From assembly GCF_003334305.1 (NCBI RefSeq), contig NZ_QOWS01000004.1: DNA of 64,000 nucleotides. One strand, 5' to 3'. Within the stretch, counting starts at the first letter, position 1, and each line of letters opens with the position of its first letter. A model generated the notes under the pieces. The model was given only the letters and a program-made list of their open reading frames with translations, had not been told where the DNA came from and did not search any database. A program made the position numbers and the translations under genes. Source of the DNA: Escherichia coli. Lineage in GTDB: Bacteria > Pseudomonadota > Gammaproteobacteria > Enterobacterales > Enterobacteriaceae. This document shows, piece by piece, positions 1-64,000 of this stretch.

Positions 1-68
1 CGGGAGGATTCGAACCTCCGACCGCTCGGTTCGTAGCCGAGTACTCTATCCAGCTGAGCTACGGATGC
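1..68 (-). tRNA. argY: tRNA-Arg (anticodon ACG), 3' end cut by window edge
   Basis: Reverse complement reads GCATCCGTAGCTCAGCTGGATAGAGTACTCGGCTACGAACCGAGCGGTCGGAGGTTCGAATCCTCCCG, identical to the full copy at 266-342; symbol assigned by position in the K-12 serV-argV-argY-argZ-argQ cluster. Confidence 0.9.
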
Positions 69-132
69 ATCGGGAAACTTACTTTACTGCAGATTTTTTG
101 ATACCGCTACTAAAGCCGTATCAAGTAAGAGG

Positions 133-151
133 TGGTGCATCCGGGAGGATT
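133..151 (-). other. 19-nt fragment identical to the 3' end (acceptor/T-arm plus CCA) of tRNA-Arg, inside the inter-tRNA spacer
   Basis: tggtgcatccgggaggatt matches the first 19 nt of the tRNA copies at 266 and at window start, then diverges. Confidence 0.6.
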
Positions 152-265
152 ACTCGCCTTGCGGCTCGCCCTTCGGGCCGTTGCTAAAGCAACGTTATCC
201 TCCCTGGTGCCTGCGGTTATACCGCCACCTCTTCCATACCTTCATCGCTGAAAGTACGTAGAATA

Positions 266-342
266 TGGTGCATCCGGGAGGATTCGAACCTCCGACCGCT
301 CGGTTCGTAGCCGAGTACTCTATCCAGCTGAGCTACGGATGC
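266..342 (-). tRNA. argV: tRNA-Arg (anticodon ACG), complete 77 nt with encoded CCA
   Basis: Reverse complement gives canonical cloverleaf GCATCCGTAGCTCAGCTGGATAGAGTACTCGGCTACGAACCGAGCGGTCGGAGGTTCGAATCCTCCCGGATGCACCA. Confidence 0.95.
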
Positions 343-345
343 AAA

Positions 346-438
346 TGGCGGTGAGGCGGGGATTCGAACCCCGGATGCAGCTTTTGACCGCATACTCCCT
401 TAGCAGGGGAGCGCCTTCAGCCTCTCGGCCACCTCACC
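346..438 (-). tRNA. serV: tRNA-Ser (anticodon GCU), 93 nt with long variable arm
   Basis: Reverse complement GGTGAGGTGGCCGAGAGGCTGAAGGCGCTCCCCTGCTAAGGGAGTATGCGGTCAAAAGCTGCATCCGGGGTTCGAATCCCCGCCTCACCGCCA; 3 nt from argV. Confidence 0.95.
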
Positions 439-1173: not shown

Positions 1174-3804
1174 TTATTGCAATTTCGCGCTGACCCAGCC
1201 TTTCACACTGGCTAACGCTGCAGGTAAGGCCGCAGCATCCGTACCACCGGCTTGCGCCATGTCAGGACGTCCACCACCCTTGCCGCCCACCTGCTGAGCG
1301 ACCATACCAATCAGTTCCCCTGCTTTCACACGATCTGTGACGTCCTTAGATACGCCTGCAATCAGAGAAACCTTACCTTCGGCTACCGTTGCCAGCACGA
1401 TAATTGTCGACCCCAGCTGATTTTTTAAATCGTCAACCATGGTACGCAACATTTTCGGCTCAACACCGCTAAGCTCGCTAACCAACAGCTTAACACCATT
1501 AACATCAATTGCCTTACTGGAAAGATTTGCGCTCTCCTGTGCGGCAGCTTGTTCTTTAAGCTGTTGTAGTTCTTTTTCTAACTGACGCGTACGTTCCAGT
1601 ACTGAGCGCACTTTATCCGCCAGATTATTGCTATCGCCTTTCAGCAGATGCGCGACTTCGCTTAAGCGATCGCTGTCTGCATGAACGGTGGTGATAGCGC
1701 CTTCTCCGGTTACCGCTTCGATACGACGAACGCCTGCAGCAGTACCCGATTCAGAGATGATGCGGAACAGACCAATATCACCAGTGCGGCTGGCGTGAGT
1801 ACCGCCACACAGCTCGGTGGAGAAATCGCCCATGCTCAGCACGCGTACACGCTCATCATACTTCTCGCCGAACAGCGCCATCGCACCTTTCGCTTTCGCC
1901 GCTTCGAGATCCATGATGTTGGTTTCGATCGGCAAATTGCGACGAATCTGTGCGTTCACCAGGTCTTCGACCGCACGAATCTCTTCCGGTTTCATCGCTT
2001 CGTTGTGTGAGAAGTCGAAGCGCAGCACCTTGTCGTTAACCAGTGAACCTTTCTGCGATACATGAGTCCCCAGAACCTGGCGCAGCGCAGCGTGCATCAG
2101 GTGCGTTGCGGAGTGATTCAGACGAATACGGGCGCGACGAGCCTCATCAACATCAGCCTGCACAGCGTCGCCCACTTTCAGAGAACCCGCAGCAAGTTTA
2201 CCGATGTGACCAATCGCCTGGCCGTATTTCTGCGTATCTTCCACCGCGAAGGAGAAGTTAGCGCCTTTCAGTTCGCCTTTATCACCAACCTGACCGCCGG
2301 ATTCCGCATAGAATGGTGTTTGATCCAGCACGACCACAGCTTCCTGGCCTGCATTGATGGCATCAACCGCTTTACCATCAACAAACAGCGCGGTCACTTT
2401 GCCGTTCAGTTCCAGATGGTCATAGCCTTTAAATTCAGATGCACTATCAACACGGATCATTGCGTTGTAATCGGCACCAAAGCCGCTGGCTTCGCGCGCG
2501 CGACGACGCTGCTCTTCCATTGCTGCTTCAAAACCAGCTTCGTCAACTTTGATGTTGCGCTCACGACAAACATCAGCCGTCAGGTCAACCGGGAAGCCAT
2601 AGGTGTCGTACAGACGGAAAGCCGTTTCACCATCCAGCGTATCACCAGAAAGTTTTGCCAGCTCTTCATCCAGCAACGCCAGACCGCGCTCCAGAGTACG
2701 GGCAAACTGCTCTTCTTCAGTCTTCAGCACCTGCTCAACCTGCGCCTGCTGGCGTTTCAGGTCTTCACCCGCAGAGCCCATAACGTCGATCAGCGGACCA
2801 ACCAGTTTGTAGAAGAAGGTTTCTTTCGCGCCGAGCATATTGCCGTGACGCACTGCGCGACGAATGATACGACGCAGTACATAACCACGGTTTTCATTGG
2901 ACGGCATTACGCCATCCGCGATCAGGAACGCACAAGAACGAATGTGGTCAGCGATTACGCGCAGCGATTTATTGCTCAGATCGGTCGCGCCAGTGACTTT
3001 CGCTACCGCCTGGATCAACGTGCGGAACAGGTCGATGTCATAGTTAGAGTTAACGTGTTGCAGCACCGCAGCAATACGCTCCAGACCCATACCGGTATCT
3101 ACAGACGGCTTCGGCAGCGGTTCCATCGTGCCATCTGCCTGGCGGTTGAACTGCATGAAGACGATGTTCCAGATCTCAATGTAGCGGTCGCCGTCTTCTT
3201 CCGGACTTCCCGGAGGGCCACCCCAAATGTGGTCGCCGTGATCGTAGAAGATTTCGGTGCACGGGCCGCACGGACCAGTGTCACCCATCTGCCAGAAGTT
3301 GTCAGATGCGTATGGCGCACCTTTGTTATCGCCGATGCGAATAATACGTTCGCGCGGGATCCCGACTTCTTTTTCCCAGATTTCGTAGGCTTCGTCGTCG
3401 CTTTCATAGACGGTAACCCACAGACGCTCTTTCGGCAGGGCAAACCATTTTTCGCTGGTCAGCAGTTCCCATGCAAACTGAATGGCATCGTGTTTGAAAT
3501 AGTCGCCGAAGCTGAAGTTGCCCAGCATTTCGAAGAAGGTATGGTGACGCGCGGTGTAACCGACGTTTTCCAGGTCGTTGTGTTTACCACCCGCACGCAC
3601 GCAGCGTTGGGAAGTGGTAGCGCGGGAATAATTACGCTTGTCGAGCCCAAGGAACACATCCTTGAACTGGTTCATCCCGGCGTTGGTAAACAACAAAGTT
3701 GGGTCGTTATGGGGTACCAGGGAGCTGCTGGCAACTACCTGATGTCCCTTACTATGGAAAAAGTCGAGAAACGCCTGACGGATCTCAGCGGTGCTCTTGC
3801 TCAT
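1174..3804 (-). CDS. alaS: Alanine--tRNA ligase
   Basis: ORF track 876 aa, starts [24 protein letters not shown]; class II aaRS; position downstream of recX. Confidence 0.97.
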
Positions 3805-3931
3805 AATTATCCTGAAATCAAGCTAACGAAATATCGCCACCAGCTCCAGCGTGTCTTAACCGCCGGGCTGGTAACTGAAAAGTGGGAATAAGATAAGTTT
3901 TCTTGACTGGGAAGTAAAATACCGTATGCGT

Positions 3932-4432
3932 TCAGTCGGCAAAATTTCGCCAAATATCCTGGATATCTTCCATCAGATAGCCACGATAGAGCAGAAAACG
4001 CTGGATCTTAACTTTTTCTGAAAAGACAGTTGGCAAAGGTTCACCATATTTTCGCGTCGCCTGATCGCGCGCCAGTGCGCACCAGTCGATGTCACATTCA
4101 CGCATCGCTTTTTCTGTCGCTTCGCGGGAAATACCTTTCTGATTCAGTTCCTGACGAATACGTGCAGGTCCATAACCTTTGCGGCTACGGCTGGCGATAA
4201 AGCGCGCAACAAATCGGCTGTCATCGAGATAGCCATGTTCATGGCACCAGGCAATAACGCGCTCGTAATCTTCTGCCGTAGCATCAATCTCTTCTGGGCC
4301 ATTTTTGCCCATAATCGGTGCCGCGAGTTTACGTCGCAGTTCTTGCTCACTGTGATCGCGCACCGCCAGAATGCGTACCGCACGATCCAACAGGCGAGCA
4401 TATGCCGGGCGACGGGACGTTGATTCTGTCAT
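3932..4432 (-). CDS. recX: RecA regulator RecX
   Basis: ORF track 166 aa, [36 protein letters not shown]; immediately downstream of recA on same strand. Confidence 0.95.
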
Positions 4433-4449
4433 GGCATATCCTTACAACT

Positions 4450-4480
4450 TAAAAAAGCAAAAGGGCCGCAGATGCGACCC
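4450..4480 (-). terminator. Rho-independent terminator hairpin between recA and recX
   Basis: Inverted repeat gggccgcagatgcgaccc (4463-4480) followed on the minus strand by a U-rich run (uuuugcuuuuuu). Confidence 0.6.
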
Positions 4481-4594
4481 AGGTTTTGCTGATAAACAGA
4501 TTTAATAGTCAATGAGTGTGCAGAATGTTCCCGCAGGCCCAATTCGTTAGAGGATCGAGGTGAGAGTAATTTTTCACGCCAGTGCTGGCCTGTT

Positions 4595-4631
4595 CCCCTC
4601 ACCCTAACCCTCTCCCCAAAGGGGCGAGGGG
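4595..4631. repeat. GC-rich imperfect palindromic intergenic element (cccctcaccctaaccctctcccc aaa ggggcgagggg)
   Basis: Visible inverted symmetry CCCCTC...GAGGGG around an AAA centre; lies in extra recA-recX intergenic DNA; resembles enterobacterial boxC-type repeats (identity is inference). Confidence 0.45.
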
Positions 4632-4674
4632 ACCGTCCGTGCACACATTATCTATTATCATCAATAACGAACGA

Positions 4675-5815
<1,141 letters not shown>

Positions 5816-6313
5816 TCAAGTGTTTTGTAGAAATTGTTGCCACAAGGTCTGCAATGCATACGCAGTAGCCTGACGACGCACCGCATCACGGTCGCCGCTG
5901 AAGCATTCCCGCCGGGTAATGCCTTCACCGCGGGCAGTGGCAAAAGCAAACCAGACGGTGCCGACAGGCTTCTCTTCACTGCCGCCATCCGGCCCGGCGA
6001 TACCACTAATAGACACGGCATAATCAGCACGAGCCGCTTTCAGTGCGCCTATCACCATTTCCACCACGACGGGTTCACTCACCGCGCCATGCTGCGCCAG
6101 CGTCTCTTCGCGTACGCCGATCATCTGCGCTTTGGCTTCGTTACTGTAGGTGACAAATCCGCGTTCAAACCAGGCGGAGCTACCGGCAATATCGGTAATC
6201 ACTTTCGCTACCCAACCACCGGTACAAGACTCGGCAGTTGTTACGGTTGCGCCACGGGCTTTCAGCGCCTGCCCAACCTGTTCACTTAACTGCATCAGTT
6301 CACTGTCAGTCAT
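5816..6313 (-). CDS. pncC: NMN amidohydrolase PncC (CinA C-terminal domain family)
   Basis: ORF track 5816..6316; protein MTDSELMQLSEQVGQALKARGATVTTAESCTGGW; position between recA and mltB. Confidence 0.9.
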   Translation of the reverse strand: MTDSELMQLSEQVGQALKARGATVTTAESCTGGWVAKVITDIAGSSAWFERGFVTYSNEAKAQMIGVREETLAQHGAVSEPVVVEMVIGALKAARADYAVSISGIAGPDGGSEEKPVGTVWFAFATARGEGITRRECFSGDRDAVRRQATAYALQTLWQQFLQNT

Positions 6314-43725: not shown

Positions 43726-43726
43726 T

Positions 43727-43752
43727 CTCATGCTTCTTCTGTGAAGCATGAG
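43727..43752. terminator. Hairpin between convergent pphB and ygbI (ctcatgcttc-ttctgt-gaagcatgag)
   Basis: 10-bp perfect inverted repeat directly after the pphB stop. Confidence 0.5.
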
Positions 43753-43775
43753 TAACCAAATGTTATTGCAGGCCA

Positions 43776-44573
43776 TTATTCATTTTTCGCAACCAGCAAA
43801 GAGAGATCCTGCTTCGCCAGCGCGCGACTGGCACTCTCCGGCAAACCGTCGTCTGTGATAATCTGATCAAACTCGCTTAATGGTAACGCCAGCCATGTCG
43901 CCACCTGACCATATTTCGTCGCATCACAGACCAAAACTCGCTGGCGGCTGGCACTGGCAATCGCCCGTTTCACCGTGACTTTATCTTCCGCTGGCGTAGA
44001 AATCCCCCGCACACTCCATGACGATGCAGAAATAAAAGCCTGATCAATCATCAGGCTGCGCAGCATGGTCGCAGCGGCTTCCCCGACACAGGAACGGTTT
44101 TCCCGACACACTGCACCGCCAGTGTGAATAATTGTGCAATTACTGTTGTCGAGCAAGTAGTTCGCAATAACGAAATCGTTTGTGACCACAGTCAGTGACT
44201 CCATGTGAATCAGATGCTGTGCTATCGCTAACGTGGTCGTTCCCGCATCCAGATAGATACAACTTCCCGGCTGAACAAGACTTGCCGCCAGCTTGCCAAT
44301 AGCCGCTTTTTGCGTCATTGCCAGCGCAGTTTTTACCTGATGAGAAGGTTCATGCGCCACGCGTCCCGGAGACTGGACGCCTCCGGACACCAGCACAACG
44401 GCTCCCTGCTGCTCCAGTTTTTGTAAATCCCGACGAATGGTCATATGTGACACATTCATTCTGTCCGTTAGTTCAGCAATACTGACAATGCCTTTTTCAG
44501 CTACCATCTCAAGGATGATTTGGCGACGCTCTACGGGTATCAACTTTTGCTCCTTCCTTTGTCCTGCTGACAT
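43776..44573 (-). CDS. ygbI: DeoR-family transcriptional regulator
   Basis: ORF track 265 aa; HTH IVSIAELTDRMNVSHMTIRRDLQKLE; the true start may be a few codons internal. Confidence 0.88.
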   Translation of the reverse strand: MSAGQRKEQKLIPVERRQIILEMVAEKGIVSIAELTDRMNVSHMTIRRDLQKLEQQGAVVLVSGGVQSPGRVAHEPSHQVKTALAMTQKAAIGKLAASLVQPGSCIYLDAGTTTLAIAQHLIHMESLTVVTNDFVIANYLLDNSNCTIIHTGGAVCRENRSCVGEAAATMLRSLMIDQAFISASSWSVRGISTPAEDKVTVKRAIASASRQRVLVCDATKYGQVATWLALPLSEFDQIITDDGLPESASRALAKQDLSLLVAKNE

Positions 44574-44738
44574 TCTACGCTATTTGCCTGCGAAACGTGC
44601 GCGGCGCAACTAACGCTTAGTTCACATAAAATAACACACAATGTTAATTTATGTGAATCAGCTCACCATATCGTTATCTTCCAGCGCTTATATTCACAAT
44701 ATCAAACAAAATATCACTTAAATTAACAAGGAGAGCAG

Positions 44739-45647
44739 ATGAAAACGGGATCTGAGTTTCATGTCGGTATCGTTGGCTTAGGGTCAATGGGAATGGGAGC
44801 AGCACTGTCATGTGTCCGCGCAGGTCTTTCTACCTGGGGCGCAGACCTGAACAGCAATGCCTGCGCTACGTTGAAAGAGGCAGGTGCTTGCGGGGTTTCT
44901 GATAACGCCGCGACGTTTGCCGAAAAACTGGACGCTCTGCTGGTGCTGGTGGTCAATGCGGCCCAGGTTAAACAGGTGCTGTTTGGTGAAACAGGCGTTG
45001 CACAACATCTGAAACCCGGTACGGCAGTAATGGTTTCTTCCACTATCGCTAGTGCTGATGCGCAAGAAATTGCTACCGCTCTGGCTGGATTCGATCTGGA
45101 AATGCTGGATGCGCCAGTTTCTGGTGGTGCAGTAAAAGCCGCTAACGGTGAAATGACTGTCATGGCCTCCGGTAGCGATATTGCCTTTGAACGACTGGCA
45201 CCCGTGCTGGAAGCCGTTGCCGGAAAAGTTTATCGCATAGGTGCAGAACCGGGACTAGGTTCGACCGTAAAAATTATTCACCAGTTGTTAGCGGGCGTAC
45301 ATATTGCTGCCGGAGCCGAAGCGATGGCACTTGCAGCCCGTGCGGGGATCCCGCTGGATGTGATGTATGACGTCGTGACCAATGCCGCCGGAAATTCCTG
45401 GATGTTCGAAAACCGGATGCGTCATGTGGTGGATGGCGATTACACCCCGCATTCAGCCGTCGATATTTTTGTTAAGGATCTTGGTCTGGTTGCCGATACA
45501 GCCAAAGCCCTGCACTTCCCGCTGCCATTGGCCTCAACAGCATTGAATATGTTCACCAGCGCCAGTAACGCAGGTTACGGGAAAGAAGACGATAGCGCAG
45601 TTATCAAGATTTTCTCTGGCATCACTCTACCGGGAGCGAAATCATGA
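44739..45647 (+). CDS. ygbJ: L-threonate dehydrogenase (3-hydroxyisobutyrate dehydrogenase family)
   Basis: ORF track 302 aa; Rossmann motif VGIVGLGSMGMGAA. Confidence 0.9.
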   Translation: MKTGSEFHVGIVGLGSMGMGAALSCVRAGLSTWGADLNSNACATLKEAGACGVSDNAATFAEKLDALLVLVVNAAQVKQVLFGETGVAQHLKPGTAVMVSSTIASADAQEIATALAGFDLEMLDAPVSGGAVKAANGEMTVMASGSDIAFERLAPVLEAVAGKVYRIGAEPGLGSTVKIIHQLLAGVHIAAGAEAMALAARAGIPLDVMYDVVTNAAGNSWMFENRMRHVVDGDYTPHSAVDIFVKDLGLVADTAKALHFPLPLASTALNMFTSASNAGYGKEDDSAVIKIFSGITLPGAKS

Positions 45648-46906
45648 TCAAGATTGGCGTTATCGCCGATGATTTTACCGGCGCGACGGATATCGCCAGT
45701 TTTCTGGTGGAAAACGGTCTACCAACGGTACAAATTAACGGTGTTCCAACAGGTAAAATGCCGGAAGCAATCGACGCACTGGTGATCAGCCTGAAAACGC
45801 GCTCCTGTCCGGTGGTTGAAGCCACACAGCAATCGCTGGCGGCTCTGAGCTGGTTGCAACAGCAAGGTTGCAAACAGATCTATTTCAAATACTGCTCTAC
45901 TTTCGACAGTACGGCGAAAGGTAATATCGGCCCGGTTACCGATGCATTAATGGATGCTCTCGACACGCCGTTTACGGTCTTCTCTCCGGCCCTGCCGGTC
46001 AACGGACGTACGGTTTATCAGGGGTATTTGTTCGTAATGAATCAACTGCTGGCCGAATCCGGGATGCGCCATCACCCGGTAAATCCCATGACCGACAGCT
46101 ATCTTCCCCGTCTGGTTGAAGCGCAATCCACAGGGCGCTGCGGCGTCGTTTCGGCACATGTTTTCGAACAAGGTGTGGATGCCGTTCGTCAAGAGCTGGC
46201 TCGCTTACAGCAAGAGGGCTACCGCTACGCGGTGCTTGATGCGCTGACCGAACACCATCTGGAAATTCAGGGAGAAGCCTTGCGCGATGCCCCACTGGTA
46301 ACGGGTGGTTCTGGTCTGGCGATTGGCCTGGCCCGGCAGTGGGCGCAAGAAAACGGTAACCAGGCTCGCGAAGCAGGGCGTCCGCTCGCTGGGCGCGGCG
46401 TAGTGCTCTCCGGTTCATGCTCTCAAATGACCAACCGCCAGGTGGCACATTACCGTCAAATTGCACCAGCCCGTGAAGTTGATGTGGCACGCTGCCTCTC
46501 AACCGAAACTCTGGCCGCTTATGCACACGAACTGGCAGAGTGGGTTCTGGGCCAGGAAAGTGTACTTGCTCCACTGGTTTTTGCCACCGCCAGCACTGAC
46601 GCATTGGCAGCAATTCAACAGCAATACGGTGCACAAAAAGCCAGTCAGGCAGTAGAAACTCTATTTTCTAAACTAGCGGCGCGGTTAGCAGCGGAAGGCG
46701 TGACACGCTTTATTGTCGCAGGCGGTGAGACCTCCGGCGTAGTCACACAGAGCCTGGGCATAAAAGGGTTTCATATTGGCCCAACCATTTCTCCCGGCGT
46801 GCCGTGGGTAAACGCACTGGATAAGCCTGTCTCACTCGCCCTTAAATCTGGCAACTTCGGTGATGAAGCCTTTTTTTCACGAGCCCAAAGAGAGTTTTTA
46901 TCATGA
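45644..46906 (+). CDS. ygbK: 3-oxo-tetronate kinase (DUF1537 four-carbon acid sugar kinase family)
   Basis: ORF track 420 aa MIKIGVIADDFTGATDIASFL; overlaps ygbJ stop. Confidence 0.88.
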   Translation: MIKIGVIADDFTGATDIASFLVENGLPTVQINGVPTGKMPEAIDALVISLKTRSCPVVEATQQSLAALSWLQQQGCKQIYFKYCSTFDSTAKGNIGPVTDALMDALDTPFTVFSPALPVNGRTVYQGYLFVMNQLLAESGMRHHPVNPMTDSYLPRLVEAQSTGRCGVVSAHVFEQGVDAVRQELARLQQEGYRYAVLDALTEHHLEIQGEALRDAPLVTGGSGLAIGLARQWAQENGNQAREAGRPLAGRGVVLSGSCSQMTNRQVAHYRQIAPAREVDVARCLSTETLAAYAHELAEWVLGQESVLAPLVFATASTDALAAIQQQYGAQKASQAVETLFSKLAARLAAEGVTRFIVAGGETSGVVTQSLGIKGFHIGPTISPGVPWVNALDKPVSLALKSGNFGDEAFFSRAQREFLS

Positions 46907-47541
46907 GCGATTTCGCAAAAGTAGAGCAGTCTTTGCGAGAGGAGATGACGCGGATTGCCAGTTCATTCTTTCAGCGCGGCTATGCAACCGGTTCGGCTGG
47001 CAATCTGTCGCTGCTTTTACCTGACGGGAATTTACTGGCGACACCGACAGGTTCATGCCTGGGCAATCTCGATCCGCAGCGGCTTTCCAAAGTCGCCGCG
47101 GATGGCGAATGGTTAAGTGGTGACAAACCCTCAAAAGAGGTGCTCTTTCATCTGGCGCTGTATCGCAACAATCCGCGCTGTAAAGCGGTGGTGCATTTGC
47201 ACAGCACATGGTCGACGGCGCTTTCCTGCCTGCAAGGGCTGGACAGCAGCAACGTTATTCGTCCGTTCACACCATACGTGGTGATGCGGATGGGAAATGT
47301 CCCGCTGGTGCCTTATTACCGACCGGGCGATAAACGCATCGCACAGGATCTGGCGGAACTGGCAGCAGACAATCAGGCTTTTTTACTGGCAAATCATGGC
47401 CCAGTGGTTTGCGGTGAAAGCCTGCAAGAAGCCGCCAACAATATGGAAGAGCTGGAGGAAACGGCAAAGCTGATTTTTATTCTCGGTGACCGCCCGATCC
47501 GTTATCTGACCGCAGGTGAAATTGCGGAATTAAGGAGTTAA
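46903..47541 (+). CDS. ygbL: Class II aldolase/adducin-family 3-oxo-tetronate 4-phosphate decarboxylase
   Basis: ORF track 212 aa; overlaps ygbK stop. Confidence 0.88.
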
Positions 47542-47545
47542 TGCA

Positions 47546-48322
47546 ATGCCTCGTTTTGCAGCTAATTTATCCATGATGTTCACCGAAGTGCCTTTTATTG
47601 AACGCTTCGCCGCAGCGCGAAAAGCCGGGTTCGATGCTGTGGAATTTCTGTTTCCCTATGACTACTCCACCCTGCAAATCCAAAAGCAACTGGAGCAAAA
47701 CCATCTGACACTGGCGCTGTTCAATACCGCTCCCGGAGATATTAATGCGGGGGAATGGGGATTATCCGCCCTTCCCGGACGTGAGCACGAAGCACACGCA
47801 GACATCGACCTGGCACTGGAATATGCATTGGCGCTCAATTGTGAACAAGTCCATGTGATGGCAGGCGTCGTGCCCGCTGGCGAAGACGCTGAACGGTACC
47901 GGGCAGTATTTATCGATAATCTCCGCTACGCTGCCGACCGCTTTGCGCTACACGGCAAGCGAATATTAGTTGAAGCACTCAGCCCCGACGTTAAGCCTCA
48001 TTATCTCTTCTCCAGCCAGTATCAGGCACTGGCTATTGTTGAAGAGGTTGCGCGAGATAACGTGTTTATTCAACTAGATACTTTTCATGCGCAAAAAGTA
48101 GATGGCAACCTGACGCATTTAATCCGCGACTACGCTGGGAAATATGCGCACGTACAAATTGCCGGACTACCTGATCGACATGAACCGGACGATGGAGAAA
48201 TCAACTATCCGTGGCTGTTCCGCCTGTTCGATGAGGTGGGATATCAGGGCTGGATCGGTTGTGAATATAAACCTCGTGGCCTCACCGAAGAAGGGCTTGG
48301 CTGGTTTGACGCCTGGCGCTAA
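47546..48322 (+). CDS. ygbM: 2-oxo-tetronate isomerase (hydroxypyruvate isomerase-like TIM barrel)
   Basis: ORF track 258 aa [34 protein letters not shown]. Confidence 0.88.
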
Positions 48323-48410
48323 TTCGTTAAATCCCTAATTACAACGTACCCATACATCCCCCCATCTACGGATGGGGTAGGTTAACTATAACTTTCAGAC
48401 AGGGTTTCCC

Positions 48411-49775
48411 ATGTCCACAATTACATTGTTATGCATTGCGTTAGCTGGCGTAATCATGCTGTTGCTGCTGGTCATCAAGGCAAAGGTACAACCATTCGTT
48501 GCTCTGCTCCTCGTCAGCCTGTTAGTCGCACTTGCGGCGGGTATACCGGCGGGCGAAGTGGGTAAAGTGATGATCGCCGGGATGGGCGGTGTGCTTGGTT
48601 CCGTCACTATTATTATTGGTCTGGGCGCTATGCTGGGGCGTATGATCGAACACTCTGGTGGTGCAGAGTCACTGGCTAATTATTTCAGTCGCAAGTTAGG
48701 TGACAAACGAACTATCGCTGCGCTGACTCTGGCAGCGTTCTTCCTCGGTATTCCCGTCTTCTTTGATGTCGGCTTTATTATTCTTGCGCCAATCATTTAC
48801 GGTTTTGCCAAGGTTGCCAAAATATCGCCACTCAAATTTGGCCTGCCTGTCGCTGGAATCATGCTAACTGTTCATGTGGCGGTACCGCCGCATCCAGGCC
48901 CTGTCGCCGCAGCGGGGTTACTCCACGCAGACATCGGCTGGCTAACCATCATCGGTATTGCGATTTCTATTCCCGTAGGGATTGTTGGCTACTTTGCAGC
49001 GAAAATAATCAATACGCGCCAATATGCGATGTCGGTGGAAGTACTGGAACAGATGCAACTGGCTCCGGCCAGTGAGGAAGGCGCAACAAAATTAAGCGAT
49101 AAAATAAATCCACCGGGCGTCGCGCTGGTCACCTCGCTAATTGTTATTCCTATCGCGATTATCATGGCGGGTACGGTTTCCGCAACACTGATGCCGCCTT
49201 CGCATCCCCTGCTTGGTACGCTACAGCTGATCGGCTCACCAATGGTAGCTCTAATGATTGCGCTGGTGCTGGCATTCTGGTTATTGGCTTTACGTCGCGG
49301 CTGGAGCTTACAACACACCAGCGACATTATGGGCTCAGCCCTTCCCACTGCGGCGGTAGTGATTTTGGTTACTGGTGCTGGAGGGGTATTTGGCAAAGTG
49401 CTGGTGGAATCGGGCGTCGGCAAAGCCCTTGCCAATATGCTACAAATGATTGACCTGCCTCTGTTACCAGCCGCATTTATTATTTCACTGGCTCTGCGTG
49501 CATCGCAGGGGTCAGCAACCGTAGCAATCCTGACAACCGGCGGGTTACTCTCAGAAGCGGTGATGGGATTGAATCCGATTCAGTGCGTATTGGTGACGCT
49601 GGCAGCCTGCTTTGGTGGGCTTGGCGCGTCACATATTAATGACTCAGGGTTCTGGATTGTGACCAAATATCTGGGGTTGTCGGTAGCAGACGGTCTGAAA
49701 ACCTGGACAGTGTTAACGACCATTCTCGGTTTTACCGGATTCTTAATTACCTGGTGCGTATGGGCGGTAATTTGA
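48411..49775 (+). CDS. ygbN: GntP-family acid-sugar permease
   Basis: ORF track 454 aa, polytopic membrane protein. Confidence 0.9.
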   Translation: MSTITLLCIALAGVIMLLLLVIKAKVQPFVALLLVSLLVALAAGIPAGEVGKVMIAGMGGVLGSVTIIIGLGAMLGRMIEHSGGAESLANYFSRKLGDKRTIAALTLAAFFLGIPVFFDVGFIILAPIIYGFAKVAKISPLKFGLPVAGIMLTVHVAVPPHPGPVAAAGLLHADIGWLTIIGIAISIPVGIVGYFAAKIINTRQYAMSVEVLEQMQLAPASEEGATKLSDKINPPGVALVTSLIVIPIAIIMAGTVSATLMPPSHPLLGTLQLIGSPMVALMIALVLAFWLLALRRGWSLQHTSDIMGSALPTAAVVILVTGAGGVFGKVLVESGVGKALANMLQMIDLPLLPAAFIISLALRASQGSATVAILTTGGLLSEAVMGLNPIQCVLVTLAACFGGLGASHINDSGFWIVTKYLGLSVADGLKTWTVLTTILGFTGFLITWCVWAVI

Positions 49776-49780
49776 CCTTA

Positions 49781-49816
49781 ATAAAAAGGTCCGATGGGCA
49801 TCGGACCTTTTATTTA
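49781..49816. terminator. Bidirectional rho-independent terminator shared by convergent ygbN and ecdD
   Basis: ataaaaa-ggtccgatg-ggc-catcggacc-tttttattt: stem flanked by an A-run and a T-run. Confidence 0.8.
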
Positions 49817-50050
49817 ACGCTTACCTTCCACCAGCAGCGGCGGGATGCTCGGCACCATTGGCGCGTCATCAATATCTTTCTGCGTCATGCGGAACGCTTC
49901 GGGATAATGTTCGCGGCTGGTACGGCGCAGCGGTTCGGTATCGCGCCAGGTATAAAGGCAATGCTGGCACTGATATACCGTCCAGACATCTTTCACCGGC
50001 GATTTCGCCATCACTTCAATCTGTTCATCGGCACAACGTGGACAAATCAT
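49814..50050 (-). CDS. ecdD: Small zinc-ribbon subunit of UbiD-family phenolic acid decarboxylase (BsdD/EcdD-like)
   Basis: ORF track 78 aa MICPRCADEQIEVMAKSPVKDVWTVYQCQHCLYTW (CxxC...CxxC); last gene of the UbiX-UbiD-small subunit operon. Confidence 0.75.
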   Translation of the reverse strand: MICPRCADEQIEVMAKSPVKDVWTVYQCQHCLYTWRDTEPLRRTSREHYPEAFRMTQKDIDDAPMVPSIPPLLVEGKR

Positions 50051-50060
50051 CTTCTTCTCC

Positions 50061-51488
50061 TTATTTACGTGCAGCCAGCATAGCGGTCAGTTTTTCAGCC
50101 CAGGCTTTGGTTTCCGGTAAATCCACCACCGGTTGGCTGTAGTGACCACGGTTGTCCGGGGCGACAGGCGTAGTGGCGTCGATAATCAGCTTGTCGGTGA
50201 TCCCCGCAGGGCTTGAGCCTGGATCGAGTTCCAGCACGGACATATTCGGCAACTGCACCAAATCCCCTGCCGGGTTCACTTTCGAGGAGAGCGCCCACAT
50301 CACCTGCGGCAGGTTGAACGGGTCAACGTCTTCATCGACCATAATCACCATCTTCACGTAGCCCAGACCATGCGGCGTGGTCATTGCGCGCAGGCCCACC
50401 GCGCGGGCAAAGCCGCCGTAGCGTTTTTTGGTGGAGATAATCGCCAGCAGGCCATGGGTGTACATGGCGTTTACCGCCTGCACTTCAGGGAACTCGGCTT
50501 TCAGCTGCTGATACAGCGGCACGCAGGTGGCTGGCCCCATCAGGTAGTCGATTTCGGTCCACGGCATACCGAGGTACAGCGATTCGAAAATCGGCCTGGT
50601 GCGGTAAGAGACTTTATCGATGCGCACCACGGTCATGTTACGCCCGCCGGAGTAGTGCCCGGTAAACTCACCGAACGGCCCTTCGATTTCGCGTTTACGG
50701 CTTTCGATAACCCCTTCGAGGATCACTTCTGAACCCCACGGCACATCAAAACCGGTCAGCGGGGCGGTGGCGATCGGGTACGGGCTTTCACGCAGCGCGC
50801 CTGCCATTTCATACTCAGACTGATCGTATTTCAGCGGCGTGGCCCCCATCAGCGTGATGATCGGATCGTTACCGAGCGTGATCGCAATCGGCAGATCTTC
50901 ACCGCGCTCTTCTGCTTTATGCAGATGCAGGGCGATATCGTGCATCGGCACCGGTTGCAGGCCGAGCTTACGCTTGCCCTTCACTTCCATGCGGTAGATG
51001 CCGACGTTCTGCTTGCCGAAGTTATCTGGGTCGAGCGGATCGCGGGAAACCACGCAGGCTTTGTCGAGATAGAAACCGCCATCGCCATCGTTTAAACGAA
51101 ACAGCGGCAGGATATCGAACAGGTTAATCTCTTCGCCATCGACGGTGTTCTGCGCCCAGGCTGGATTGGCGCGGCGCTCCGGGGCAATCGGGAAGTTATC
51201 CCAGCGGCGGATAAACTCATCAATCTGCTTTTTGACCGGGGTGTTTGGTGGCAGGCCAAGGGAAATCGCGTGGTTCTGCCAGGAACCGATGGTATTCATC
51301 GTCACGCGGGCATCGGTAAAGCCGCGAATATTATCAAACCACAGCGCGGGCGCGCCGTCGCCGATACGCCCGGTGGCGTTAGCTGCTGCTGCCAGATCCG
51401 GCTCAGCGTTCACCTCTTCGCTGATTTTCAGTAACTGGCCGTGGTCATCAAGCGCCTGTAAAAAGCTGCGTAAATCATCAAATGCCAT
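50061..51488 (-). CDS. ecdC: UbiD-family (prenyl-FMN-dependent) aromatic acid decarboxylase
   Basis: ORF track 475 aa MAFDDLRSFLQALDDHGQLLKISEEVNAEPDL. Confidence 0.85.
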   Translation of the reverse strand: MAFDDLRSFLQALDDHGQLLKISEEVNAEPDLAAAANATGRIGDGAPALWFDNIRGFTDARVTMNTIGSWQNHAISLGLPPNTPVKKQIDEFIRRWDNFPIAPERRANPAWAQNTVDGEEINLFDILPLFRLNDGDGGFYLDKACVVSRDPLDPDNFGKQNVGIYRMEVKGKRKLGLQPVPMHDIALHLHKAEERGEDLPIAITLGNDPIITLMGATPLKYDQSEYEMAGALRESPYPIATAPLTGFDVPWGSEVILEGVIESRKREIEGPFGEFTGHYSGGRNMTVVRIDKVSYRTRPIFESLYLGMPWTEIDYLMGPATCVPLYQQLKAEFPEVQAVNAMYTHGLLAIISTKKRYGGFARAVGLRAMTTPHGLGYVKMVIMVDEDVDPFNLPQVMWALSSKVNPAGDLVQLPNMSVLELDPGSSPAGITDKLIIDATTPVAPDNRGHYSQPVVDLPETKAWAEKLTAMLAARK

Positions 51489-52081
51489 TATTCATTCTCC
51501 TGAGAAAAATTCCGGGCCTGCGGCAATCCTTGCCAGCGCCTGGCATGGGGATGTTCGAGGCCAAATTTATCCAGCACGCGGGCTACCACATGGTGGACAA
51601 TGTCATCTACCGTTTCGGGATGGTTATAAAAGGCAGGCATCGGCGGCACCATCGCCACGCCCATGCGTGAAAGTGCGAGCATATTTTCGAGATGGATGGT
51701 GCTAAGCGGCATTTCACGCGGCACCAGCACCAGTTTGCGGCCTTCTTTGAGCACGACGTCCGCCGCGCGCCCTACCAGGCCATCGGCGTAACCAGCGCGG
51801 ATACCGGCGAGCGTTTTCATACTGCACGGAATAACGATCATGCCGTCGGTACGAAAAGAACCGGATGAGATGATCGCCGCCTGATCCGCCGGGTTATGGC
51901 TGAAGTCTGCGAGGGCAGCAACATCGCGAGCGCTGTAAGGCGTTTCCAGTTCAATGGTGGTTTTCGCCCACTTCGACATCACCAGATGAGTCTCGACATT
52001 CGGCATCTCCCGCAGCGCTTGCAGTAATGCCACACCAAGAGGCGCACCGGTAGCCCCTGTCATCCCGACGATCAGTTTCAT
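51488..52081 (-). CDS. ecdB: UbiX/Pad1-family flavin prenyltransferase
   Basis: ORF track 197 aa MKLIVGMTGATGAPLGVALLQAL; stop overlaps the ecdC start. Confidence 0.85.
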   Translation of the reverse strand: MKLIVGMTGATGAPLGVALLQALREMPNVETHLVMSKWAKTTIELETPYSARDVAALADFSHNPADQAAIISSGSFRTDGMIVIPCSMKTLAGIRAGYADGLVGRAADVVLKEGRKLVLVPREMPLSTIHLENMLALSRMGVAMVPPMPAFYNHPETVDDIVHHVVARVLDKFGLEHPHARRWQGLPQARNFSQENE

Positions 52082-52227
52082 TGCTTATCCTCTTAATTGT
52101 TCGTATACGAACATTATTATTAACATACTCCTTCATTTCCACAGCGGCAAGGATTGAAAAGTAACAACATCTTCTTCGTCACTAAAAAACCGCTATGATA
52201 GCGACAGAGAATTAGCCCGGAGTTTAC

Positions 52228-52635
52228 ATGGCGTTACGAAATAAAGCGTTCCATCAGTTACGACAGCTTTTTCAGCAGCACACGGCTCGCTGGCAGCACG
52301 AGTTACCTGACCTGACCAAACCACAGTACGCGGTGATGCGCGCCATTGCTGATAAACCTGGTATCGAACAGGTGGCACTGATAGAAGCAGCTGTCAGCAC
52401 CAAAGCAACGTTAGCAGAAATGTTGGCAAGAATGGAAAATCGTGGCTTAGTCAGACGTGAACATGACCCCGCTGATAAGCGGCGACGCTTTGTCTGGTTG
52501 ACTGCCGAAGGCGAAAAGATACTTGCTGCGGCGATACCCATTGGTGACAGCGTGGATGAGGAATTTTTGGGGCGTTTGAGTGGAGAAGAGCAGGAGCTGT
52601 TTATGCAGCTGGTGCGCAAGATGATGAACGCATAG
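52228..52635 (+). CDS. hosA: MarR/SlyA-family transcriptional regulator
   Basis: ORF track 135 aa; winged-helix region QYAVMRAIADKPGIEQVALIEAAVSTKATLAEMLARMENRGLVRR; divergent from ecdBCD. Confidence 0.8.
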   Translation: MALRNKAFHQLRQLFQQHTARWQHELPDLTKPQYAVMRAIADKPGIEQVALIEAAVSTKATLAEMLARMENRGLVRREHDPADKRRRFVWLTAEGEKILAAAIPIGDSVDEEFLGRLSGEEQELFMQLVRKMMNA

Positions 52636-52646
52636 GGGGCAAATTT

Positions 52647-52680
52647 CCGGATGCGACGCTATCGCGTCTTATCCAGACTA
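52647..52680. repeat. REP-like element downstream of hosA
   Basis: ccggatgcgacgctatcgcgtcttatccagacta resembles the REP consensus. Confidence 0.6.
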
Positions 52681-52704
52681 CAAATACACCGACTCACCAA
52701 CCGA

Positions 52705-52737
52705 AAGAAAAAAGGCCAGCCTCGCTTGAGACTGGCC
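52705..52737 (-). terminator. Rho-independent terminator of rpoS
   Basis: Minus strand: ggccagtctcaagcgaggctggcc followed by uuuuuucuu, about 20 nt after the rpoS stop. Confidence 0.8.
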
Positions 52738-52755
52738 TTTCTGACAGATGCTTAC

Positions 52756-53748
52756 TTACTCGCGGAACAGCGCTTCGATATTCAGCCCCTGCGTTTGTAG
52801 GATTTCGCGCAAACGGCGCAGGCCTTCAACCTGAATCTGGCGAACACGTTCACGGGTGAGGCCAATTTCACGACCTACATCTTCCAGTGTTGCCGCTTCG
52901 TACCCCAGCAAACCGAATCGACGTGCCAGCACTTCACGCTGTTTGGCGTTCAGCTCGAACAGCCATTTGACGATGCTCTGCTTCATATCATCATCTTGCG
53001 TGGTATCTTCCGGACCGTTCTCTTTTTCATCGGCCAGGATGTCCAGCAACGCTTTTTCGGAATCACCACCCAGCGGGGTGTCTACCGAGGTAATGCGCTC
53101 GTTAAGACGAAGCATACGGCTGACGTCATCAACTGGCTTATCCAGTTGCTCTGCGATCTCTTCCGCACTTGGTTCATGGTCCAGCTTATGGGACAACTCA
53201 CGTGCGGTTCGCAGGTAAACGTTCAGCTCCTTTACGATGTGAATCGGCAAACGAATAGTACGGGTTTGGTTCATAATCGCCCGTTCAATCGTCTGGCGAA
53301 TCCACCAGGTTGCGTATGTCGAGAAGCGGAAACCACGTTCCGGGTCAAACTTCTCTACCGCGCGGATCAGCCCCAGGTTGCCCTCTTCGATAAGGTCCAG
53401 CAACGCCAGACCACGATTGCCATAACGGCGGGCAATTTTTACCACCAGACGCAAGTTACTCTCGATCATCCGGCGGCGAGAGGCGACATCTCCACGCAGT
53501 GCGCGACGCGCAAAATAAACTTCTTCTTCGGCCGTTAACAGTGGTGAATAACCAATCTCACCAAGGTAAAGCTGAGTCGCGTCCAACACACGCTGTGTGG
53601 CTCCCTGCGATAACAGTTCCTCTTCGGCCAAATCGTTATCACTGGGTTCCTCTTCTACTAAGGCCTTTTCGTCAAAAACCTCAACTCCGTTCTCATCAAA
53701 TTCCGCATCTTCATTTAAATCATGAACTTTCAGCGTATTCTGACTCAT
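52756..53748 (-). CDS. rpoS: RNA polymerase sigma factor RpoS (sigma-38), apparently intact
   Basis: ORF track 52756..53784; start at [21 protein letters not shown], 330 aa; no amber at codon 33. Confidence 0.97.
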
Positions 53749-53810
53749 AAGGTGGCTCCTACCCGTGATCCCTTGACGGAACATTCAAGCAAAAGCCTGG
53801 TTCCGCCGAT

Positions 53811-63835: not shown

Positions 63836-64000
63836 GGGAGTTCTACCGCAGGGGCGGGGAATTCTAAGTGATATCCATCATCGCATCCAGTGCGCCCGGT
63901 TTATCCCCGCTGGCGCGGGGAACACTCACGCGCTGTTACCCAGTCCCTTTTTTTCAGCGGTTTATCCCCGCTGGCGCGGGGAACACCGCCGCGGACTCAC
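63836..64000. CRISPR. Leader-distal end of a type I-E CRISPR array: degenerate terminal repeat, two 29-nt repeats, 32-nt spacers; runs off the window
   Basis: Repeat cggtttatccccgctggcgcggggaacac at 63897-63925 and 63958-63986; spacers at 63865-63896 and 63926-63957; degenerate copy gggagttctaccgcaggggcggggaattc at 63836-63864 (18/29 match). Confidence 0.93.

Follow-up and report, generated by a model that had tools for sequence, protein, structure and literature searches.

The ecdBCD-hosA decarboxylase locus between ygbN and rpoS in Escherichia coli: a very probably ancestral locus, lost from K-12, in a published layout

What occupies the gap between ygbN and rpoS in this Escherichia coli strain, and was it gained here or lost from K-12? 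In the window, the 64,000-nucleotide stretch analysed, the gap from the ygbN stop (49775) to the rpoS stop codon (52756) is exactly 49776-52755 and holds four intact open reading frames (Table 1), in agreement with a sequence-only reading that had described minus-strand enzyme genes and a divergent regulator. The B, C and D subunit genes are adjacent and co-oriented, in the order of the three-subunit Vdc/Bsd/Ecd/Kpd-type systems; the ecdB stop and the ecdC start share one base (ATGA), and 10 nt separate ecdC from ecdD. Strain H15, with 3 differences from the window in 26,401 compared bases, carries a RefSeq annotation of the same four genes. Opposite-strand ORFs, such as 49754-50083 (+) and 51145-51705 (+), fall within strongly conserved genes and were for that reason discounted as spurious. 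The left flank, ygbN, is the last gene of an intact ygbI-N cluster. We assign the block to the known ecdBCD-hosA locus (also kpd/vdc/pad1-yclC-slyA), in the published 'pattern IV' order mutS-pphB-ygbI..N-ecdDCB-hosA-rpoS, and give this assignment, taken jointly with the mechanism and the ancestral origin proposed below, a probability of about 0.93.

Table 1 Features of the ygbN-rpoS interval and its flanks (window coordinates)
Feature	Position	Strand	Basis
ygbN (o454), GntP-family transporter, left flank	48411..49775	+	NCBIfam PRK09821, 827 bits (cut-off 524); ygbN in the H15 annotation
Bidirectional terminator hairpin AAAAAGGTCCGATG-GGCATCGGACCTTTTATT, convergent ygbN/ecdD	49783..49814		Folding
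ecdD/vdcD, 78-aa zinc-ribbon activator subunit	49814..50050	-	NCBIfam VdcD
Segment absent from K-12, the '2.9-kb' variable part of the mutS-rpoS region	49815..52709		Junction comparison
ecdC/vdcC, 475-aa UbiD-family, prFMN-dependent reversible hydroxyarylic acid decarboxylase	50061..51488	-	NCBIfam VdcC
ecdB/vdcB (pad1), 197-aa UbiX-type flavin prenyltransferase	51488..52081	-	NCBIfam VdcB
HosA operator, perfect 16-bp palindrome TGTTCGTATACGAACA	52098..52113		Inverted repeat I1; published oligonucleotide core
Putative ecdBCD promoter: -35 TTGCCG (52150-52145), 17-nt spacer, -10 TATGTT (52127-52122)	52122..52150	-	Conserved columns
CGCTATGATAGCG conserved element, 25-37 nt upstream of hosA	52191..52203	+	Inverted repeat I2
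hosA, 135-aa MarR-family repressor, divergent from ecdBCD	52228..52635	+	Near-identity to 8AGA
REP-like palindromic element, hosA-rpoS gap	52647..52681		-15.1 kcal/mol, z -5.6
rpoS terminator, 15-pair stem	52709..52742	-	Terminator scan
rpoS, right flank, intact, 330 aa	52756..53748	-	330/330 against O157:H7 RpoS; annotated in H15

Families were assigned with the curated NCBIfam cut-offs, using the Vdc models and the Sedimentibacter VdcCD structure 7AE4 as reference. All three enzyme subunits exceed their cut-offs (VdcB, 308.9 against 290 bits; VdcC, 788.7 against 650; VdcD, 121.2 against 30). EcdB also scores above those of the UbiX family (PRK06029, 255 against 188 bits; TIGR00421, 244 against 109) and is identical at 194 of 197 residues to PDB 1SBZ, the O157:H7 Pad1, while EcdC belongs to the UbiD family (TIGR00148, 417 bits against 245). 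The alignment of EcdC with 7AE4_A (ShVdcC; E = 1.6e-160, residues 3-471) runs end to end and keeps the EGPFGEF loop, which contains ShVdcC E273 and the catalytic E278, as well as the NVG-YR segment; the catalytic Arg was assigned by reading this alignment and not from a residue number in the paper. Cysteines C3, C6, C28 and C31 of EcdD (CxxC...CxxC) align with the four Cys of ShdD (7AE4), which bind Zn in ShVdcD, the subunit that VdcC requires for activity (PMC8379154). In spite of these likenesses, the VdcCD systems of Sedimentibacter hydroxybenzoicus and Bacillus subtilis (ShdCD, BsdCD) are far more distant relatives, the D subunits matching only at E = 4e-11, and their regulators differ, HosA being specific to the enterobacterial loci examined. 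The K-12 UbiX/UbiD pair follows a similar two-enzyme logic, with a flavin prenyltransferase and a prFMN-dependent decarboxylase, but the two proteins are distant paralogues (UbiD, 2IDB, against EcdC, E = 3e-46; NCBIfam UbiD equivalog, 173 bits against 788), without a D subunit, acting on a polyprenylated substrate and unlinked to hosA.

By analogy with these homologues, EcdB would convert reduced FMN and dimethylallyl phosphate to prFMN, with which EcdC, a presumably hexameric UbiD-family enzyme, would reversibly decarboxylate 4-hydroxybenzoate or vanillate to phenol or guaiacol and CO2; the EcdD zinc ribbon would be bound to EcdC and required for its activity. The substrate range proposed for the E. 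coli enzyme is that of the Sedimentibacter and Bacillus homologues, to which the identity of EcdC is much below 100%.

The regulator is identical at 131 of 134 residues to PDB 8AGA ('Transcriptional regulator HosA'), and together with the enzyme matches this bears out the UbiX-like, UbiD-like, Zn-ribbon and MarR-type identities proposed earlier for the four products. All seven ligand-contact residues named in a preprint (F8, H9, R12, F15, H18, K31 and D110; bioRxiv 10.1101/2024.04.24.590444) are found in the HosA translation of the window. No NCBIfam equivalog scored above its cut-off for HosA, the best being BagL_FevM with 92 bits against 230. PcaV (4FHT; E = 4e-17) and other MarR hydroxybenzoate sensors share the winged-helix MarR fold and de-repression by ligand, but HosA forms a separate orthologous group, and their operators and regulons differ from its own. 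HosA was originally described as a motility regulator, a role that the ecdBCD operon does not explain.

The 14-bp operator core GTTCGTATACGAAC lies at 52099-52112, and the 16-bp palindrome around it is separated by 17 nt from the start codon of ecdB, on the upstream side. Table S1 of PMC6261655 lists HosA-binding oligonucleotides with the same core; a full-text literature search gave no match to the operator sequence, the match being in the supplement of that paper. In the supplement the sequence is given as GTTTCGTATACGAAC, which has an additional T relative to the stated 14-bp site, and the match consists of the shared core CGTATACGAAC with its flanks. HosA binds its site and is released by 4-hydroxybenzoate (KD 4.7 μM; PMC6261655). 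The operator is present at the same distance, with at most one mismatch, in 62 of 65 species.

In a 56-species intergenic alignment, the conserved columns CTTG, GTA and TTAAT suggest the ecdBCD promoter listed in Table 1. A consensus promoter scan disagrees with this placement and returned one weak site, TGGAAA-17-AATAAT at 52141-52113, where 2.5 are expected by chance; we prefer the candidate drawn from cross-species conservation. With the promoter at this position, transcription would start just before the operator, which is consistent with the reported location of the HosA site downstream of the start site. On the hosA side, columns CTATCATAG within the CGCTATGATAGCG element are 80-95% conserved, and TATGAT at 52194-52199 inside it is the probable hosA -10 hexamer, a function predicted from the sequence. 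A HosA dimer on the operator core may block transcription from the ecdB promoter just upstream, and 4-hydroxybenzoate at the dimer interface would release it.

In 31 of 65 Enterobacterales loci there is a second, distal operator, about 57 bp further upstream than the proximal one. Between Escherichia and Pseudocitrobacter, third-position identity is 82-86% for ecdC-ecdD and 63% for mutS. We see even odds that the distal operator was lost in Escherichia and that ecdC-ecdD was exchanged between these two genera, both being small variations. If the operator loss is real, control of ecdBCD and autoregulation of hosA in E. coli would be simpler and possibly leakier.

The boundaries of the block were defined by a base-by-base junction comparison with one K-12 record, which lacks 49815-52709 (2,895 bp) and has the 8 bp GTGCACAG instead, so that the expected K-12 deficit of about 2.9 kb is confirmed. 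Of a 3.3-kb query, K-12 records cover 12%, in the flanks only. The hairpin between ygbN and ecdD (-17.6 kcal/mol on the plus and -17.5 on the minus strand; z -5.0 and -5.3; none of 200 shuffles as good) is retained in K-12, with identity through 49814, and the left breakpoint follows it immediately; identity resumes at 52710, the right breakpoint, at the edge of the rpoS terminator. In B2 and O157 records, a similar element occupies the position of the REP-like one at 52647-52681. A scan of the whole window with Rfam gave only tRNAs, at 1-438, and no RNA family at or close to the locus.

The earlier description of the block as an island did not hold. A horizontal acquisition beside rpoS in pathogenic lineages, with the K-12 layout as the original one, might be suggested by the missing block in K-12 and B2 strains and by a G+C content (0.56-0.58) that slightly exceeds that of the neighbours (0.51-0.53); a 2024 preprint also calls HosA 'horizontally acquired' and claims a transfer from Shigella (bioRxiv 10.1101/2024.04.24.590444). 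Nucleotide identity to O157:H7 is likewise lower in the block (95.4%) than in rpoS-nlpD (99.2%), a difference that we ascribe to allelic mosaicism. Against acquisition, hosA-ecdBCD adjoins rpoS in 46 of the 80 species sampled from Enterobacterales, in many genera, and has mutS on its far side in 39, where the order rpoS-hosA-ecdBCD-(pphB)-mutS is kept. Synonymous sites of ecdC have diverged in step with those of mutS and rpoS: when E. coli is compared with Klebsiella, Citrobacter, Enterobacter or Salmonella, third-codon-position identity is 61% for ecdC and 55-63% for mutS, which argues for vertical descent. Integrase and IS genes among the ORFs, a nearby tRNA and direct repeats at the borders were sought and none was found, and we reject a mobile island for this reason; the K-12 junction itself has the form of a clean excision, bordered by two terminators and filled with 8 bp. 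Acquisition is already largely refuted by the synteny, and we consider it very improbable. The synteny in 39 of 80 species and the mutS-like synonymous divergence instead indicate that K-12 lost the block: ecd-hosA is very probably an ancestral Enterobacteriaceae locus beside rpoS, lost or replaced in K-12 and B2, and K-12-type strains very probably carry a clean deletion between the ygbN and rpoS terminators.

In a set of 5,426 complete genomes of E. coli, the block is present in 2,379 and missing from more than half, and in at least one genome (H5) an IS3 element is inserted in ecdC. Such frequent loss could mean that the four genes are decaying remnants without present function in this strain. 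This is hardly credible, since the four ORFs are full-length, the catalytic, Zn-binding and ligand residues are intact and the operator is a perfect palindrome; in addition, EcdC keeps 88-99% protein identity across the order while its synonymous sites are near saturation, which points to strong purifying selection.

The layout of the window is common. Its ygbN-ecdD junction is present in 1,593 of the 5,426 genomes (about 29%), and O26:H11, O111:H8 and O121:H19 genomes share the arrangement at 98-100% identity; in B2 strains the block is missing and other genes are in its place. In the window ygbN is followed by ecdD, hosA is followed by rpoS and ygbI-N is intact, which equals the order o454(ygbN)-kpdD-kpdC-kpdB-slyA-rpoS published as 'pattern IV' for EPEC/EHEC-2-type and other non-B2 E. 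coli (Ewers et al. 2014, PMC4209514). There is no difference of substance between the two, the names being kpd/slyA there and ecd/vdc/hosA here, and the sequence-only reading was right to see a known polymorphism and no new system.

Its further proposal, that the block is the variable segment of the O157:H7 type, is supported by near-identical proteins (EcdD 77/78, EcdC 473/475, EcdB 194/197 and HosA 130/135; 96-99.6%) and by equal genes, order, orientation and rpoS-side junction. The most divergent gene is ecdC, with 88% third-position identity. The difference lies on the other side, where ecdD abuts ygbN in the window but abuts pphB in O157:H7, via a REP-like hairpin and with ygbI-N missing.

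This difference bears on which E. coli arrangement came first. The fuller layout, with both ygbI-N and ecdBCD-hosA, was reportedly put forward as the ancestral E. coli arrangement by Herbelin et al. in 2000; O157 types would then have lost ygbI-N, and K-12 types ecd-hosA. It is the most parsimonious source of both shorter forms within E. coli and, with 1,593 of 2,379 genomes, the most frequent of the forms that carry ecd, and two Salmonella loci also have ygb genes in the mutS-rpoS interval, although both blocks are arranged differently there. However, a blastn-short comparison of the O157 pphB-ecdD spacer showed that this spacer, a REP-like hairpin (GCCGGGTAAAGCAAAGCCACTACCCGGC), is not made of pattern-IV sequence and is shared with Escherichia sp. 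E1V33 and Pseudocitrobacter, so that O157 seems to have the junction of the outgroups. None of the non-E. coli loci sampled has ygbI-N between ecdD and mutS in the orientation of the window, including the 39 species in which rpoS and mutS flank the block (0/39). Since the O157-type junction, and not that of the window, is shared with outgroups, ygbI-N is the likelier inserted piece. Alternatively, O157 may have re-imported an outgroup-like segment, as the 95.4% identity of the block would allow. We therefore regard an ancestral fuller layout as somewhat less probable than its alternatives; of the earlier suggestion that the fuller form is of ancestral type, the ecd-hosA part stands, whereas outgroups share the junction that lacks ygbI-N.

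The enzymes, repressor, operator and exact chromosomal layout of the locus have all been published, as has the locus itself, and the discovery value is small. As a marker of the non-B2 'pattern IV' form of the mutS-rpoS region, the locus has some value for strain typing. By analogy with the characterized homologues, the strain is probably able to convert 4-hydroxybenzoate, such as that derived from parabens or plant phenolics, to phenol. The analysis also corrects a label that is still in the literature: ecdBCD-hosA is very probably an ancestral Enterobacteriaceae locus lost by K-12, and not a pathogen-specific acquired island.

The interval 49776-52755 is the exact gap between the ygbN stop (49775) and the rpoS stop codon (52756), and within it lie three intact minus-strand open reading frames and a fourth, also intact, that is divergent from them. 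The coordinates of these genes and of neighbouring features are collected in the table. The G+C content of the block is 0.56-0.58, against 0.51-0.53 in the flanks, and its base composition is unremarkable.

Features of the ecdBCD-hosA block and its surroundings (window positions)
Feature	Position	Strand	Remarks
tRNA genes (three)	1-438	-	first one truncated by window edge
pphB-proximal junction	43726-43775		short hairpin GTCTCATGCTTCTTCTGTGAAGCATGAG, then ygbI
ygbI-N cluster	about 43730-49807		6.1 kb
ygbM	47546-48322
Bidirectional terminator hairpin	49783-49814		common to ygbN and ecdD
ecdD (vdcD)	49814-50050	-	78 aa; 10 nt beyond ecdC
ecdC (vdcC)	50061-51488	-	475 aa; start overlaps ecdB stop by one base (ATGA)
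ecdB (vdcB/Pad1)	51488-52081	-	197 aa
Perfect 16-bp palindrome TGTTCGTATACGAACA	52098-52113		17 nt 5' of ecdB ATG
Putative ecdB -10, TATGTT	52127-52122	-	17-nt spacer to -35
Putative ecdB -35, TTGCCG	52150-52145	-
Putative hosA -10, TATGAT	52194-52199	+
hosA	52228-52635	+ (divergent)	135 aa
REP-like element	52647-52681		between hosA and rpoS
rpoS terminator	52709-52742
rpoS, mechanical ORF	52756-53784		begins 12 codons upstream of annotated 330-aa start
Type I-E CRISPR array	~63897-64000		predicted start, 3' of iap; offset from H15 annotation

To identify the proteins, we compared them with family models, structures and the O157:H7 genome. EcdB, EcdC and EcdD score 309, 789 and 121 against the NCBIfam models VdcB, VdcC and VdcD of 'non-oxidative hydroxyarylic acid decarboxylase' (curated cut-offs 290, 650 and 30), and the enzyme proteins also exceed the general NCBIfam UbiX and UbiD family models. 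With the NCBIfam equivalog model of the ubiquinone UbiD, EcdC falls far short of the cut-off (173 versus 788). EcdB is identical at 194/197 positions to the O157:H7 UbiX-like protein 'Pad1' (PDB 1SBZ), while EcdC aligns end to end with Sedimentibacter VdcC (7AE4, E 1.6e-160) and conserves the EGPFGEF loop with the catalytic glutamate E278. EcdD aligns with VdcD/ShdD of the same structure and carries Cys3, Cys6, Cys28 and Cys31, the same residues that bind zinc in ShVdcD (PMC8379154). HosA matches 'Transcriptional regulator HosA' of EPEC (8AGA) at 131/134 residues, and retains all the 4-hydroxybenzoate contacts described for HosA, F8, H9, R12, F15, H18, K31 and D110 (bioRxiv 10.1101/2024.04.24.590444). 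Identities to the O157:H7 genome proteins are 77/78 (EcdD), 473/475 (EcdC), 194/197 (EcdB) and 130/135 (HosA). These close identities, together with the family and structure matches, indicate that the sequence-only reading had called the four genes (UbiX-like, UbiD-like, zinc-ribbon and MarR-type) correctly.

The divergent ecdB-hosA region is 146 bp long, and the core and flanks of its palindrome match the oligonucleotides used with HosA in EMSA and biolayer interferometry (PMC6261655, table S1). In an alignment of this region from 56 species the conserved blocks are the palindrome, a CTTG...GTA...TTAAT element upstream of it and CTATCATAG adjoining hosA. From these blocks we infer the ecdB and hosA promoters, although a simple consensus promoter scan chose another, weak site rather than this ecdB promoter. 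With the ecdB promoter so placed, transcription would start just upstream of the operator, which agrees with the description given with bioRxiv 10.1101/2024.04.24.590444. The proximal operator is found with at most one mismatch in 62 of 65 species, and a second HosA-like site (e.g. GATCGTATACGAAC) lies about 57 bp upstream of it in 31 of 65 Enterobacterales loci. When window positions 52040-52230 were compared with the loci of EcdC relatives (L005-L084, one per species), only the proximal site was seen in E. coli, Escherichia sp. E1V33, Salmonella and several Citrobacter.

By analogy with close homologues, EcdB would make prenylated FMN, with which EcdC would catalyse the reversible decarboxylation of 4-hydroxybenzoate or vanillate, with EcdD bound to it as an obligatory zinc-ribbon activator (PMC8379154). 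HosA on the palindrome would repress the operon until released by 4-hydroxybenzoate, which frees it from DNA with a KD of 4.7 uM (PMC6261655).

K-12 records match the flanks only. Identity between the window and K-12 continues to 49814, where the ygbN terminator ends, and restarts at 52710, on the margin of the rpoS terminator; base by base, an 8-bp GTGCACAG in K-12 replaces 2,895 bp of the window. Both comparisons bear out the claim that K-12 lacks the block. The rpoS gene of the window is intact and encodes the same protein as that of O157:H7; in the K-12 comparison record it is marked as a pseudogene, interrupted by an internal stop. ygbM carries the RefSeq product name 'HPr family phosphocarrier protein' in both K-12 and E. 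coli strain H15; this looks wrong, as we take YgbM to be OtnI, a hydroxypyruvate-isomerase-like protein of the threonate/erythronate pathway.

Among 5,426 complete E. coli genomes we observed four layouts: the window type, with ygbN adjoining ecdD; the O157 type, with pphB adjoining ecdD and without ygbI-N; the K-12 type; and the B2 type, in which an MBL-fold hydrolase and a flavodoxin replace the ecd block. The block is present in 2,379 of these genomes and the ygbN-ecdD junction in 1,593. Ewers et al. 2014 (PMC4209514) described the same four layouts, and their pattern IV, o454-kpdD-kpdC-kpdB-slyA-rpoS, is the arrangement of the window. The RefSeq annotation of H15, which differs from the window at 3 of 26,401 bases, lists the same four genes. 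The arrangement is therefore both published and common, a known polymorphism as had been proposed. In the B2 strain K-15KW01 the MBL-fold hydrolase and flavodoxin-family genes occupy positions 3319-5138 of the locus extracted (L004); this type keeps the REP-like element and rpoS terminator on the rpoS side and has an altered ygbN 3' end. In one further E. coli genome (H5, NZ_CP071711.1) the UbiD-like gene is split by an IS3-family transposase, a case of the locus still being inactivated.

The block had been termed an island, which the comparison with other genera contradicts. We scanned one genome per species and kept the best 80 EcdC relatives: in 46 of these species hosA-ecdBCD is next to rpoS and oriented as in the window, and in 39 of the 46 mutS is on the ecdD side, a few hundred bases to a few kb away. 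The genera with an rpoS-adjacent block include Citrobacter, Klebsiella, Enterobacter, Kluyvera, Leclercia, Kosakonia, Atlantibacter, Franconibacter and Mangrovibacter; Salmonella and Phytobacter have it inverted, with ecdD adjoining rpoS. Neither rpoS nor mutS was found within 10 kb of the block in 24 of the 80, some on short contigs, including Rahnella, Pantoea, Erwinia, a Vibrio and several Enterobacteriaceae. For ecdC, third-codon-position identity of E. coli to Klebsiella, Citrobacter, Enterobacter or Salmonella is 61%, similar to mutS (55-63%) and rpoS (63-79%), while the EcdC proteins are 97% identical, a pattern typical of strongly constrained genes that were inherited vertically rather than transferred recently. 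Neither an integrase or IS nor a tRNA or border repeat was found at the block. Synteny, mutS/rpoS-like divergence and the lack of mobility features together argue that the block is ancestral and was lost by K-12. The label 'horizontally acquired' in the 2024 preprint (bioRxiv 10.1101/2024.04.24.590444) likewise does not fit the synteny and divergence.

The sequence-only reading had also suggested that the fuller layout, with ygbI-N, is of the ancestral type. Synteny supports this for the block itself, but the ygbI-N part is less secure, because the REP-like hairpin found between pphB and ecdD in O157:H7 is common to other genera. This hairpin, GCCGGGTAAAGCAAAGCCACTACCCGGC (positions 5973-6012 of the O157:H7 locus, L003), forms the pphB-ecdD spacer of the O157 type and also occurs, little altered, in Escherichia sp. 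E1V33 and Pseudocitrobacter. It is not in the window, where ygbI-N fills its exact position, and the pphB-proximal junction differs between the layouts. Among the best 80 EcdC-relative species, ygbI-N does not lie between ecdD and mutS in the window orientation in any other genus; in Salmonella the interval does contain ygb genes, in a different order. Either an ancestor of E. coli gained ygbI-N by insertion at this position, or a segment of outgroup type was brought back into the O157 lineage; the nucleotide identity between the window and O157 lineages, 95.4% in the block against 99.2% in rpoS-nlpD, is compatible with the latter.

At third positions the window and O157:H7 (L003) are 88% identical in ecdC, 99% in ecdD, 94% in ecdB and 93% in hosA, with rpoS at 98% and mutS also divergent (89%); judged by these values the block is a mosaic within E. 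coli. Pseudocitrobacter (L007-L009) ecdC and ecdD resemble their E. coli counterparts unusually closely (82-86%), while ecdB (60%), hosA (42%), mutS (63%) and rpoS (71%) do not, which suggests an exchange between Escherichia and Pseudocitrobacter confined to ecdCD.

The original observation is confirmed, and its interpretation is supported with two corrections, to the term 'island' and to the ancestral layout. Every aspect of the locus was known already, from its genes, structures and regulator to its operator and its polymorphism in the population.
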